DNA of 64,000 bases from Lingula anatina. Its lineage: Eukaryota; Animalia; Brachiopoda. Under the pieces are notes generated by a model that was given only the letters and a program-made list of their open reading frames with translations, had not been told where the DNA came from and searched no databases. Positions 33,601 to 57,600 of the stretch are shown piece by piece; position 1 is the stretch's first letter; each line of letters begins with the position of its first letter. The DNA is taken from the NCBI GenBank assembly GCA_051362555.1, contig CM120640.1, positions 23,236,225 to 23,300,224 on the forward strand. Reading direction: 5' to 3'. The position numbers and the translations under genes were made by a program.

Positions 33601-36600
33601 AAACAGTAAAGCTTTTAAAAGTCTTTAAATGCACTCCATTTGAAGTACATGTATGACACAGCTCAAGAGCTTTTGAAAAGAATTTTTTATGTTAAAAAAA
33701 CATTTCAATCAAAATGCAAGAAGTGTTCTTATAGAAAGTTATGTTGTGTTATGAATGCACCGATCAGAATTTTAGGTGCTACCACATAATAACACAGGTT
33801 CTGCAAGAACATATGTCTTGATTCAATCAGTCATGTATAACTGTTATATGTACACGTAGCCAGCCCAGCTGTAGGTCACCTGATTTAATGACCAAAACAT
33901 CATAAATTTAGACAAAATGATAAAACAACAAATGTAAATGTTACTGTATGGCTACAAATATGTACTCAATTGAGGATTTTAAGACTGAAAGTTTAAATGA
34001 TTTGATGGGATAATAGTTTGGAATACAGAATTCCAATTTGACCCTTTACTTTCAGTACAAAAACTGATTTTTTACACACTCATTCACACACTCACAAACT
34101 GCAAACACACACACATGTGCATGCATGCATATACACACTTACTTAATTCTTTTAAAATTCTTTAATTTAAAACTCATGTTTATTTATACCAGTATATATA
34201 TGTATGTATGTGACTTTTTCCAGGTGTTGCAGAATTATACAGGAAGGTAGGAAACCGTGGCTTTACAGAAGATGAAGAAGAGGTGAGCAAGGGAGTTGCT
34301 GTTTTTAGCAATTGTGATAAATAATTTCTGGTTTAAAATGCTTTACCTTGTTCTTTTACTTTTGAGTCAGTTTCATTTTGCATTACCAGGGCAGTGTAGA
34401 GTGATGTGTCATATTTGTATTATTTGATGCCAAAATGTCACATATTTTACTGGATTAAGCTTAATCAAAGAAGTGATACTCAGTTTCACATTTTAATTTT
34501 AAAGATGACCTTCTATGCTTTAATATTTATTATCATTATTAATTTTTGTTATATTATGTTAGTTTGATGACCATTTCACAGTCCATTTAAGATCTATGAT
34601 CCTTTTAAGATTATATGTATTGTGACAATTTTGTAGTTCACATTCATGTGTTGCATGTGCAGACAGTAGAAATCAGATGAGCCAAATAACATAAGTTTTT
34701 GTCTTCTTGTCAGACTTTTCTGCCTCACACCCCACTTTTTTCAGAAAAATAAATTGACGTTAAAATATTATGGTTTTGATTTCAATAGATCATCAGAATT
34801 TATGAAAAAAAAGTTGTTTGAGAAAAGTTGAAATACTGAGTTATATTCTCCTCCCCAGTAAAGGAAAAGGGGTGCGTCAATGAGACTTTTTAAAACCCCG
34901 CCAAGTATCAGTGTACTGGTGAGCTTACTCCTGAATACTATGATATACAGGATGTTATATCTCCAACATTTCCACTTCAAGTTTTGCTTTTTCTGCATAA
35001 AAGGCCATCTGAGTTTTACTTGCATTTCTTGTGTCTATTGCACATATAGTAAATTACTTATTGTAACAAAGCAATCATGTACGAGTATTATTCTCACCCC
35101 CATTTTCATACATAGTATCACTGTTGCATGTGAAGTTGCATTACACATCAATACAGCTTATGTCTCTATCTCTGCCTATTATTACTACAGCATGTTACAT
35201 TTCATTTTTGTTATTTGTATCATTGTTATACTGTATCCCTGCTCATTTGTTGTATGTAACTGTGTCCCATGCATGTTCTTTATAGCATGCATTACTGTTT
35301 GTCGTACAAATCATTGTCACATGCATGTCATTATAGCATGTTGTTACTGTTTGTTGTATATATCATTGTCACATGCATGTTATTATAGCATGTTGTTACT
35401 GTTTGTTGTATCCTCAGGTGGTGGCCAGTTACCTGTTATTAGGCAGCATGATAACAACCATACATGAGGTACAGTATACATAGCATGTCATGTGGTATGC
35501 ATGTCAGCTTCTTTACTTGGTAGATATATATCACAGAATTAGGACATCTCTCCTCCTTCCTCATCCTCCATTTCTCTCCCTCTATCCCTCAGCTTAGAAA
35601 GCATTCCCACAGATTTAGATCCATCCACAGATTTAGAACTGGATCGACCTAACTCCCTGGAGGTTCACGCTAAATTACTATCAGCCGACCGGGCACGGAA
35701 GTTAATTACCCCCTCACATTTAAGCCGGCTAAGCTTACAGTAATCTAGTGAGACTCCCCATGGGGATAGATCATTCTAAAATTTATGGGAATGGGGTCTT
35801 ATTGGAATAGAACCATATATACAGTCCTACCTTCTGAGGCCAGCCCAGAAGTTTGGAACTTCATGGACCTCAGTAGTCTGCTGCTTGGCTTGCAACTTAA
35901 AGCACTTCAAAGTCAAACAAATGGTTGGCACTAAGTGTCATCATAGCTTTACTAAGTAGAAAGGTTTGCATGTTGAGGTGTGCCAAATTGTCACCCTGAG
36001 TTTCTGAACATGACATTTTGGATTAATTAGATTCCACCTGGGCTGTAGGGTATATTACCATTGAAACTATCGATGTACATAGACCGATCCAGCTCTTGTT
36101 GAATGCAATCAGTTTAACAGATAAATAGGCCTCCTCCTTGTGTTGAGTAGAATGCAGAAAAGCTGGTGTTTATACGAGCAGTCACTACCTTTGTTAAAGC
36201 CCTGCAAAAAGTAACTAAATGCTATATGTCATGAAACTCAGGGTACACAGCTTAAGAATGTGCATGATGATTTTATTTGTCTGATTGTCCCCAGAACTGT
36301 GTAATGTTAATGAATGTATGCCAGCAATGGGTTTTATTAGTTAAATTTAATATAATGGTAGGTGATATTTGAACATTCTGTCATTGCTTAGATTGCATCC
36401 AGTTTGGTCATATGGGGCACTGTGGCATTTCATTCTGCAGAGGTATATACCTATTATATATATATACATATATGGGAGCATGAGCAAATGGCTGTTTATT
36501 TATTTGTGCATGTATTGTTGACCATTTAAATTATTGTACAAATTGATGGTTTGGTGTACAGAAATCACTACAGATAATTTGTCATTGTGCCTAAGCTAAA

Positions 36601-54600: not shown

Positions 54601-57600
54601 TGGGATGTTATTATCTTAATTTCCAAACATTAACAACATTAACAAACATATCTATGAGGATTTTAAATAAAATTTAAACGTCTGTCTGTAACCGACAATT
54701 TATGCAGTTGATAACTGACACTTGGTAAATTGACAGTTGATGATGATGATTAAAATATTGACACTCAATACTGACAGTTGATACTGATGATCCAAGATGA
54801 AAGGACGTTAGCCTTCAGCCTTTATAACAGACAGTGGATACAGATAATTGATAAATTGACAATTGATATATCAGATTGACAATTGATATTGACATTGTTT
54901 ACAGAAATTGATAAACTGACACTGACAGTTGATAAATTGACACTGACACTTGATACTGACACTTGGTAAATTAGCAATTCATACTGATGGTTGGTAATGA
55001 TTGATAAATGATATATATACCCAGGTATGTGACCATAAAATGAGACAGTCACACTGAAATACACATTTTGGAAAAAGAAAGTCAAGTTATCCAAAAAATA
55101 ACAAATATCAGAAATAAAAAGAAGGAAAATCCCATTACAATATGTTGCAAAATTGTGCCCCTATTGTAGTTTACCAGTGATGTGAAGTTTGCATATAATG
55201 TTAGCTCTGCCATCCTATCTTCTAGATTTGACCACCAGCTCCAACAAATCATTTCAGGACAAGGTGATAGCTGATGCCTTATCTCTGCAGCACTCCTTCT
55301 CCCCACCCCATTGCTGCACCTGCTTGTCTTGATTTTTATCAACAATATAATTTTGAGTCTGCATAACCTCCCATTGAAACAAAATAGCTTTTTATTATTG
55401 AAAGCTATAATAGCAAGGCAAACATGTTAATTTTGTTATCCATAAAATATACAATATAGGTTTGTGATTTTAGTTTTGTCACATTGACCTAACATGCTGT
55501 TGCCTATTTTGTGAAGGAAAAACTTATTTTCATTATTGAACTCCATGCTGTTCTGCAGACTTCATATACTTGAATAGCCTCTTGCCATTCTATTTCCCTT
55601 ATGATCTATTGATTCTCTCTCTCTCTTTCATAAAAATTAGGGTGATGAGGAGAAAAAAAATGGGCTAATGCCGCTGCGTATGATGGACAGATCATTTGCA
55701 CATGAACTTCCTGATTCTCAGGTTAGCTGTGCACACTGGCTTGTCTTGCACATGACCTGTAGATGGTGGCCATGCACTTTGGAGTTTACTGCAGTTATAA
55801 CTTAGGATCCACAAATCTAACCAATTTATTTTGATGGATCCTAGTTATAACTGTGGGTGCACATAGATTAATTGCAATGCATTTTTGTGTTATTTTGTAC
55901 ATGTGTCCTTGTGGTTGTCTAATTTCATCAAAGATGTTACAATAATTTTGGTTACCATACATAGGGAGATGAGGAAAAGAAACAAGGTCTCACTCCAATA
56001 GAAATGATGGACAGGGATCGCAAAGATATGTTACCCCAGCTGGAGGTAGACAGCAGGAAAAATTATAATTAAATGGCCTAGTGTTTTTAGTTTTGATAGC
56101 ATTTTTGGTTTCATAGAAGAACTATATTAATAATATGAATCAAAGTTATGTGGCATTTATAATTTGATTTTGTTACACTTTCACACTAATACATTTTATG
56201 AATTCCTCTCCTCTAGGCCTAAATATAGATAAATAGACAATTTACTGTATTTTCTTTTATTCACCTTGTCTATATCAGTTATCTCTTTTAGATAGATCCT
56301 ATGCGATTGTTTTTTAATTTCTAAATAATGGTAGGAATCCAAATCCCCATTAAAATTTTATTTGCTTTAATTTATCTTTTTTTTTTCTTAACATTTAAAC
56401 CCTATGATTAATTTAACCAAAGAACTGGCTGCATATCAGCCTATGATGAAATTTGTGTAATGTATTTGTCTCAGTGCTGTTTTGTGGGTCTTTTATTTGC
56501 TTCCATTTATGTATGTCATTATTTTTATGTGTAACCGTCTAAAGTATTTAAATGGATAGAAAAGAAAAAATTTAAAAAACATGTTATATGTCAAAGCACT
56601 TTCTTTAAAAAGAAATGCAATTGTCCCCCACTTAACCAAAAGAATTCTAAAAATAGATAATGCCTCACGCCATGGATCATACAAGTACAAACTGTGCCTA
56701 CTTGACTGCAGTGGACAGTGGCAAGCTGGGGCACCACTGTCACAAGGCAATTATCTTTTTGACAATTTTGTGGTTGGGGAGGGGGTGGTGCACACATGTA
56801 AAGTAACACTCACATCACTGTTGAAAGAAAGTGCTTTGGCCTTAACATATCATATCTTGTGTGAAAATTTGGCTTTTCTTTGCTTTTAAGCATAAACAAA
56901 ATATTATTACTAAATACACTTATTGCCCCATACGGGCATCCATCATATTTCAGTATTTGCATTAAATTAAATTAAAAGAGCAATTTAAATCTGTAGCTTT
57001 GAGTATGAAACATTTTTTCCATTAAGAAAGAAAACATTAATGGCAATCCTCTGATCAGGTGTCCAAAATTAAATGAATAATAAAAAAATTAGTCTATGCT
57101 TATGCGAGCTAAAACTGGTTCAAATTTTAATATTCAATAACTTGTGCCCATTTTTTTTTCAGCTATGGGCTAATGATCTTTTAATCAGAGGATTGAAGTA
57201 AATAACCTGTATTTCCCCCAAAATTACTGAGTTCAGTTAAATGTTTGTAGATAATTTTCCTGCTCTGCTTTTCAGGTTGGTTTTCTGGTTGGTATTTGTT
57301 TACCATGTTATGAACTCTTGGCTCAGGTTCTACCTCCCACCTCTCCCATGGTAGAGGGTGCAAAGTAAGTGTTACAAAGTCAAGTTTTTCTTTATTGTTG
57401 CAAATTTAATTTTGAATTTCTGGTCTGAAATTGCACATAGCAGTGGAAGAGAGCAAAGAAAATTCATGTGGAAAGGGACAGTTACTGTATAAGGGCCTTC
57501 ATCATGCCACAATAAGTAAAGATGACCTTTAGTGCATAGACTAGTAACTATCATCTGTAAAAATTTCAACTGCATGCCAATAGTTAAGTTGGAATATGTA

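Follow-up and report, generated by a model that had tools for sequence, protein, structure and literature searches.

The Lingula anatina gene on the plus strand of the window (the whole stretch of 64,000 nucleotides analyzed here) is a PDE10/pde-5 phosphodiesterase with duplicated exon clusters, which confirms what an earlier note on this DNA had observed. What is new is a conserved choice between pocket exons, including a choice of Gln or Glu at a position regarded as invariant. It is probable that the clusters, designated A to D, are ancient tandem arrays, that the copies of B, C, and D are used one at a time, and that the C and D choices swap parts of the substrate pocket, with affinity and the cAMP/cGMP ratio likely to differ between the resulting enzymes. 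Prior annotation exists in the form of two RefSeq models of the species, P0121 and P0005, that use different copies, while a literature search for a published description of such exon swapping in PDE10 found none.

The assignment to the PDE10 type, proposed in the earlier note, holds for sequence, fold, and tree. The encoded protein contains GAF in two stretches and PDEase_I according to Pfam, and the invariant His/Asp columns of the metal ligands are present and intact in its PDE domain. The catalytic domain finds its best match in PDE10A (318–325 bits vs 232–245 for PDE5A domains), its fold compared with the PDE10A structure gives a TM of 0.94 at 44–45% identity, and the tree places the window protein together with sturgeon PDE10A (support 100/98) against a small outgroup of two PDE11-like rows. 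PDE10A is nearer than other GAF-PDEs, and both the GAF-GAF-catalytic layout and the catalytic fold are shared with vertebrate PDE10A (structures 2oun and 2zmf). The nematode pde-5 is the PDE10 orthologue (PMC12346295).

The Lingula anatina RefSeq models match the gene exon by exon. In P0121, the N-terminus and the GAF-A region are encoded by upstream exons spanning 18428–34282 (at about 18428–18655, 22013–22090, 25095–25232, 28547–28590, 28729–28840, 30369–30418, 31330–31361, 31629–31734, 32536–32629, and 34224–34282), with the reading frame open from 25095 onward. Cluster A, which encodes a 17-residue segment preceding GAF-B, consists of A1 (35418–35468, 51 nt, phase 0) and A2 (36392–36442, 51 nt) and is followed by the constant exons 39085–39143 and 39385–39436, which have open joins in P0121. 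GAF-B starts with B1 (40456–40592, 137 nt) or its alternative copy B2 (40790–40938, 149 nt), and its remainder and the linker are encoded by constant exons that P0121 includes (42680–42772, 43124–43192, 43437–43551, 43935–44074, and 44363–44458). The constant catalytic exons 50227–50377, 50613–50819, and 51337–51458, assigned to PDEase_I by Pfam, carry the metal-binding histidines and aspartate, and both joints among them are present in RNA reads. They are followed by C1 (52339–52450) and C2 (53480–53591), of 112 nt each, by D1 (54322–54402), D2 (55641–55721), and D3 (55965–56045), of 81 nt each, and by the constant last exons 57276–57364 and 57837–57960, where a single stop at 57958–57960 serves all joins. 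An intronic tandem repeat (212 nt x 3, 99% identical) also lies within the gene.

The four clusters stand with the sizes first described (51, 137/149, 112, and 81 nt), given that AG/GT ends and matching phases are found in 9/9 variable exons and that 24/24 joins taking one exon per cluster are open, with no stops. B1 and B2 share 29/45 amino acids (14 of these encoded by different codons), C1 and C2 share 20/37 (8 with a different codon), and the D copies share 13–15/27 in pairwise comparison (8–12 with a different codon), so that B, C, and D are each formed by homologous adjacent exons. A1 and A2 agree in length, phase, and ends, their homology being weak, with 3/17 residues identical and none of the three with a different codon. 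The many synonymous differences claimed earlier are therefore a property of B, C, and D and not of A. DNA identity between copies is just 43–65%. B1 and B2 share core strand motifs, with differences mostly in one loop, and B1 aligns to the PDE10A GAF structure 2zmf (E 9e-7). As a control for chance, profiles made from the segments of relatives were scanned over about 63,900 plus-strand positions of the window. All B, C, and D copies, D1 included, score +67 to +117 bits and the next best site in the window −40 or less, which means that these copies are far beyond chance and that no further copy was overlooked; indeed, no A3, B3, C3, or D4 was found on this strand of the window. A2 is the top match for its cluster, with 27–32 bits on two of three profiles, while A1, a diverged candidate without the conserved Trp, obtains about 2 bits or less and ranks 2, 6, and 20 on the three profiles. 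This makes A1 plausible, not established, as a genuine copy of cluster A. By type, A2, B1, and C1 are ancestral and C2 is spiralian.

More than one copy of C and of D is used in the mRNA of Lingula anatina. Reads of four low-depth RNA runs, mapped over the C/D region with joints listed at a minimum of at least 3 reads per run, connect the upstream exon with C1 (6 reads), C1 with D2 while skipping C2 and D1 (6 reads in 2/4 runs, 4 + 2 in X4 and X9), and the two last exons with each other (16 reads over four runs). Of the junction-level evidence that the earlier note had called for, the direct C1–D2 joint is therefore in hand. Read depth within C2, at 53525, is 4, 2, 0, and 3, and the RefSeq models take A2-B1-C2-D2 (P0121) and C1-D3 (P0005). 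D2 is joined with C1 in reads and with C2 in P0121, and C1 occurs with D2 and with D3, which indicates that the choice at C does not fix the choice at D. For clusters A and B, A2 and B1 are the only copies in the RefSeq models of the species (P0121), where A1 is absent, and D1 appears neither among the listed joints of the four low-depth runs nor in P0121 or P0005. The joint between D2 and the next exon is itself unlisted at this depth, and for this reason the absence of co-inclusion joints carries little weight.

The same swaps are found in relatives. In 184 RefSeq models of 25 other species, two variants among the isoforms of one species occur for B in 7, for C in 16, and for D in 2 of the 25, and both A types and both B types are used. 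The models that share the swaps come from molluscs, nemerteans, echinoderms, and hemichordates, and the B2-type exon recurs in models from snails, bivalves, and nemerteans. Every model (184/184) includes a single B and a single C copy, 179/184 include a single D copy (none in 5/184), and no model contains two copies of B, C, or D (0/184), although RefSeq models are predictions in which frameshifted forms are rarely included and long-range combinations are not observed molecules. Among the Crassostrea virginica models, D exons of the Gln type and of the Glu type are both represented, and in gene predictions of Pinctada and Paralvinella the two types lie in tandem with the Glu-type last, as in Lingula anatina. 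Trees of the segments are weak, being built on 25–37 columns; in these, C2 falls within a clade of 26 rows (support 99/97), and fitting Gln and Glu onto the D tree takes 6 changes against a shuffled mean of 18, without showing a single origin. In AU tests, neither a single clade of the spiralian C2 and the echinoderm/hemichordate alternative (p 0.22) nor a sister relationship of C1 and C2 of the window (p 0.086) was rejected.

The mutual exclusivity claimed for all four clusters is supported for B and C, where co-inclusion of B1 and B2 or of C1 and C2 shifts the frame, in line with the 184/184 models, and less firmly for D, where it leans on the C1–D2 reads and the 0/184 models, two D variants being present in just two species. 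Transcripts with both B or both C copies would lose the frame and would probably be degraded by nonsense-mediated decay. Two D copies stay in frame, and the exclusivity of D is therefore probably under the control of splicing factors or RNA structure. Against it stands a RefSeq model of a cockroach, P0424, which is not among the 184 and carries two D copies in frame. Strict exclusivity is not supported for A, with two copies in 24/184 of the relatives' models (4 species) and none in 7/184, and A may be a looser cluster from which one, both, or neither copy is taken. Steric exclusion is ruled out as the mechanism by intra-cluster introns of 197–1238 nt. A search for docking and selector stems near the clusters gave nothing that stands out, only short A/T-rich inverted repeats of 70–90% (288 pairs). 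Free combination into 24 enzymes goes beyond the support in the species, which covers 3/6 C–D pairs; the number 24 is neither demonstrated nor a ceiling. A shift in GAF ligand specificity, as the sensor swap of the earlier note would imply, likewise goes beyond the support, since B1 and B2 vary mostly in a loop and A covers 17 residues ahead of GAF-B.

The description of C and D as substrate-pocket modules is supported, since they encode 8/11 of the active-site positions of PDE10A listed in a review (PMC12571622). Residues were placed by gap-free transfer from sturgeon PDE10A, which reproduced all 8 C/D residues; four of the eight differ between copies and four are unchanged. In PDE10A2 numbering, C1 provides Ala677, Ser678, and Phe693, and C2 provides Ser677, Met678, and Met693, while position 725 is Leu in D1 and D3 and Ser in D2. 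Vertebrate PDE10A differs in its Tyr693/Gly725 selectivity pocket, and its set of Tyr693, Gly725, and Gln726 is not found in Lingula, where Gln726 occurs only in D1 (ending Leu-Gln) and D2 (Ser-Gln). D3 ends Leu-Glu, and its Glu aligns to the "invariant" Gln726 of PDE10A, which is Q817 in PDE5A. This last codon of D is the most telling difference between the copies and was missed in the earlier note. Among clean D segments, 144/377 end in Glu, and Leu precedes the Glu in 32/32 distinct ones. The Leu-Glu type is present in 20/21 mollusc groups, 2/4 annelids, and 0/26 other labeled groups, and no other D type occurs in the models of Haliotis (11), Ostrea (15), and Mytilus edulis (11). Judged from these sequences, this suggests that most molluscs may run PDE10 with Glu at the invariant-Gln position, which bears on the action of PDE inhibitors in snails and bivalves.

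Given the pocket exon copies and the Glu for Gln in D3, at a purine-binding position, splicing likely yields enzymes of different substrate preference from one gene. A carboxylate is a better acceptor of hydrogen bonds from guanine than from adenine. A Gln that could hold the Glu is retained by C1 and C2 alike, at the position of PDE5 Q775. On these grounds D3 would give a cGMP-biased enzyme, a direction only slightly favored over its opposite, and D1 and D2 would stay dual or PDE5-like. The two precedents conflict on the direction of the shift. In PDE9, Q453E reduces kcat/KM about 50-fold with cGMP as the substrate and 5-fold with cAMP (PMC3069055), which is opposite to the direction preferred for D3 and weakens the idea that Glu necessarily means cGMP-specific; its authors hold that the glutamine is not decisive for specificity. 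It is the same Gln to Glu change at the invariant position, although engineered and adjoining a second Glu, E406, whereas the Lingula Glu is natural, cross-phylum, and always accompanied by Leu725. The choanoflagellate SrRhoPDE, listed as cGMP-specific, has a natural Glu beside the substrate pocket, E657, and E657Q cuts cGMP hydrolysis about 30-fold (PMC8774190). The E657Q primer reads into an x-Gly-Phe motif, as follows the D3 Glu, which points to the same position; nonetheless, this residue is fixed, in a different PDE lineage and with no alternative exon. A tentative reading, with the chances somewhat against it, is that splicing sets the nucleotide specificity of a single animal PDE gene, the conserved Glu exon together with two alternative pocket walls giving cAMP-biased, dual, and cGMP-biased PDEs in different cells; if true, exon choice would fill the role that separate PDE families have in vertebrates.

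The duplicates could have arisen through misassembly or be pseudo-exons in decay, for which the nearly identical 212-nt repeat in an intron and the placement of the two RefSeq models on different scaffolds could be invoked. This is largely refuted and very improbable, given the low DNA identity between copies, the many synonymous codon differences within B, C, and D, the spliced joint that skips C2 and D1, and the copy types common to other phyla. An unlikely alternative, although the strongest, accepts real clusters and holds that choices are coupled or one copy dominant, so that just a few of the isoforms are of consequence, A1 and D1 are vestiges in this species, and swaps merely adjust affinity, inhibitor sensitivity, or stability with the cAMP/cGMP preference unmoved. 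The missing Trp and near-zero profile score of A1, the long branch of D1 and its absence from reads and models, the single D type in many mollusc model sets, the four unchanged pocket positions, and the PDE9 Q453E enzyme, still cGMP-preferring with its ratio reduced from 337 to 29 (PMC3069055), are all in its favor. It is opposed by the pairing of D2 with both C copies and of C1 with D2 and D3, by 6 A-B-C combinations among the 11 Haliotis models, and by the conservation of copy types across phyla.

Less probable than this alternative is that the Glu isoform is weak or dead, a nucleotide buffer or damper of its dimer partner, with splicing acting as an activity dial. The 50-fold loss of cGMP efficiency in PDE9 Q453E would fit (PMC3069055), but the metal ligands are intact, the activity of RhoPDE requires its Glu (PMC8774190), and the Glu-type as sole D type in Haliotis, Ostrea, and Mytilus edulis models argues for a working enzyme there.

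One-at-a-time use of tandem homologous exons is known from several clusters in Dscam1 and Mhc and from single clusters in PKM and KHK. The PDE10 gene resembles Dscam1 and Mhc in having several clusters, and differs in having just 2–3 copies in each and no docking-site/selector pairing found. KHK also appears in a human catalogue, the main text of which does not contain the word "PDE" (PMC9741552). In NALCN, the tandem mutually exclusive exons 15a/15b and 31a/31b likewise swap a key selectivity residue, there Glu/Lys, and are retained in lophotrochozoans, echinoderms, and hemichordates but missing in chordates and in the common model animals, with an independent arthropod case (Senatore et al. 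2013; PMC3557258). NALCN concerns an ion-channel pore with one cluster per species (PMC3557258), whereas the PDE10 gene varies an enzyme pocket through two adjacent clusters and has two more in its regulatory half. Splice variants of PDE10A lie mainly at the N- and C-termini (review PMC12571622), and the present gene carries the splice variation of PDEs beyond the termini and into the catalytic core. The means by which PDEs discriminate between cAMP and cGMP are contested, as is the contribution of the invariant glutamine, specificity being called a puzzle and the "glutamine switch" disputed (PMC3069055); natural, selected isoforms that differ in just a 27- or 37-residue exon offer a clean six-member test set.

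Two in-frame cassette exons with AG/GT ends, absent from the earlier note, add to the variation of the gene: one of 30 nt after A2 (37588–37617) in P0121, and one of 27 nt before the catalytic core (45523–45549) in P0005.

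Four clusters of one PDE10/pde-5 gene clearly contain nine variable exons, each with AG/GT at its ends, namely A1 (35418-35468) and A2 (36392-36442), B1 (40456-40592) and B2 (40790-40938), C1 (52339-52450) and C2 (53480-53591), and D1 (54322-54402), D2 (55641-55721) and D3 (55965-56045). This confirms the exon clusters described in the earlier note, whose interpretation is partly supported. Joining the constant exons with one A, B, C and D copy each gives an open frame to one stop in 24 of 24 cases, so one exon per cluster completes the protein, as had been claimed. The frame is broken by B+B, by C+C and by omission of B or C, and kept in A+A, in D+D and on omission of A or D. 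The copies of B, C and D share 48-64% of their residues, with numerous synonymous changes, and with profiles built from relatives score at least 107 bits over any other window position. Their claimed tandem homology therefore holds, while that of A is marginal: A2 is a clear profile match, but A1 ranks 2, 6 and 20 of ~63,900 positions with three profiles and matches A2 at 3 of 17 residues. These profiles found no further A-D copies across the window.

One constant exon is 100% identical to a RefSeq pde-5 protein of Lingula anatina, pde-5 being given as the PDE10 orthologue in nematodes (PMC12346295). Pfam finds two GAF stretches and one PDEase_I domain in the protein, whose catalytic domain matches PDE10A (318-325 bits) better than PDE5A domains (232-245); full-length PDE5A and PDE2A outscore PDE10A because their sequences include a GAF domain. 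Two RefSeq models align exon by exon with the window, apart from a few residue differences, P0121 using A2, B1, C2, D2 and a 30-nt cassette (37588-37617), and P0005 using C1, D3 and a 27-nt cassette (45523-45549). Both cassettes are in-frame micro-exons of the PDE gene, and relatives' models have variable inserts at both sites. The AlphaFold model of P0005 has a mean pLDDT of 86.6 and, against PDE10A structures, a TM of 0.94 on target.

Eight of the 11 PDE10A active-site residues listed in a review (PMC12571622) lie in C and D, reproduced by gap-free transfer from sturgeon PDE10A, and four of the eight differ between copies, which bears out the proposed substrate-pocket swap. By this transfer, position 678 (PDE10A2 numbering) is Ser in C1 and Met in C2, 693 is Phe in C1 and Met in C2, 725 is Leu in D1 and D3 and Ser in D2, and 726 is Gln in D1 and D2 and Glu in D3. 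The last residue of D3 aligns with PDE5A Q817, the 'invariant' glutamine; the Gln at the position of PDE5A Q775, which orients Q817, is kept in C1 and C2. Among 419 segmented proteins, the D segment was clean in 377, ending in Gln in 233 and in Glu in 144, and Leu precedes Glu in all 32 distinct Glu-type segments. By labelled group, Glu-type D counts 20/21 in molluscs, 2/4 in annelids and 0/26 in others. Crassostrea virginica models include both types, and Pinctada and Paralvinella predictions carry them in tandem, Glu last as in the Lingula window.

In the regulatory half, B is the start of GAF-B (match to PDE10A structure 2zmf), and A encodes 17 residues that lie upstream of the GAF-B stretch defined by Pfam. 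B1 and B2 have core strand motifs in common and differ mainly in the loop that follows, so the swap of sensor (GAF) specificity remains a suggestion.

Exon use in relatives was counted in 184 RefSeq models from 25 species among the models listed; the count excludes predictions from outside RefSeq, small sets from sister species and four models that end before C. At least two variants occur in 11 species for A, 7 for B, 16 for C (8 lophotrochozoans and 8 echinoderms/hemichordates) and 2 for D; for amphioxus, tick and octopus (14 models among those listed) no cluster has two variants. Two copies stand in a single model 24 times for A and never for B, C or D, the zeros for B and C being partly built in because frameshifted forms are seldom annotated. 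These models are predictions, indicating supported exons and not combinations existing as molecules. Three A-type segments in series are found in P0376 (Owenia), and Tubulanus models have three A variants. Five oyster, nemertean and starfish RefSeq models (P0149, P0165, P0245, P0247, P0264) end soon after C without a D segment, possibly a conserved truncated isoform. The cockroach pde-5 model P0424, outside the 184, places two D segments in tandem, each with Gln as its last residue, which likely reflects a separate duplication of this exon within insects.

RNA reads from four of nine listed runs (X1, X4, X7, X9; 6-30% of each) were mapped to 50000-58600. Constant-constant joints had 13, 7 and 16 reads, the joint from the upstream exon to C1 had 6 (X4), and a joint from C1 to D2 that skips C2 and D1 was supported by X4 (4 reads) and X9 (2 reads). 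No co-inclusion joint is among those listed at at least 3 reads in these runs and this region, an absence that is weak since the joint from D2 to the next exon is likewise unlisted. Depth in C2 (at 53525) was 4, 2, 0 and 3 reads in X1, X4, X7 and X9, and the C1 bin had none in X1, a hint, on tiny read numbers, of sample-dependent exon choice. Two short intronic stretches (51811-51851, 56351-56385) have many matching reads continuing into unrelated sequence, and probably represent interspersed-repeat cores that occur within other transcripts. Overall, B and C, and with less certainty D, conform to mutually exclusive duplicated exons, whereas A departs in one test, in relatives. The figure of 24 enzymes should be dropped, given that support in Lingula covers three C-D pairs only and that cassettes and an optional A raise the ceiling beyond it.

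Transcripts with B+B or C+C would be removed by frame surveillance, and A may be an optional exon. Because D+D stays in frame, D exclusivity would need a separate control. Steric blocking is ruled out by D introns of 1238 and 243 nt, and no outstanding RNA pairing was found around the cluster. More tentatively, the residue differences suggest that C and D swaps may alter kinetics. The precedents for Glu point opposite ways: PDE9 Q453E loses efficiency ~50-fold on cGMP and 5-fold on cAMP (PMC3069055), whereas SrRhoPDE, with a natural Glu (E657), is listed as cGMP-specific and its E657Q form has ~30-fold lower cGMP activity (PMC8774190). Judging from the primer reading frame, E657 would be at the position of the D3 Glu. 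A cGMP bias of D3 appears somewhat the likelier outcome. Among the models listed, those of Haliotis, Ostrea and Mytilus edulis have a D exon of the Glu type only, which argues against a dead enzyme.

As for prior annotation, the alternative isoforms are in RefSeq, unlabelled, and the listed hits of full-text searches over open-access main texts yielded no description of mutually exclusive splicing in PDE10 or invertebrate PDEs, or of exon choice varying the invariant PDE glutamine; catalogues of mutually exclusive exons may include these clusters. They work like the alternative pore exons of NALCN and have a similar spread across animals (PMC3557258).

In the C tree, C2 groups with mollusc, annelid, nemertean and rotifer sequences in a clade of 26 rows (support 99/97), C1 lies with rows of the ancestral type, and the alternative C of ambulacrarians forms a separate 8-row clade (95/96); AU tests do not separate one from two origins of alternative C. 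P0053, P0079 and their clusters represent an echinoderm/hemichordate alternative C exon of their own, with changes at 678, 685, 689 or 692. With the last two columns removed, the five rows nearest D3 in the D tree are all Glu-type, a tree that does not show a single origin of this type. As for other features of the window, the 5.8-kb intron of the PDE gene holds three tandem 212-nt copies, 99% identical (49305-49942), either a recent duplication or an assembly artefact, and the minus strand carries a neighbouring THEMIS/GAREM-like gene, a 650-codon open frame (2934-4886) in which Pfam recognises CABIT (PF12736, E 1e-31).
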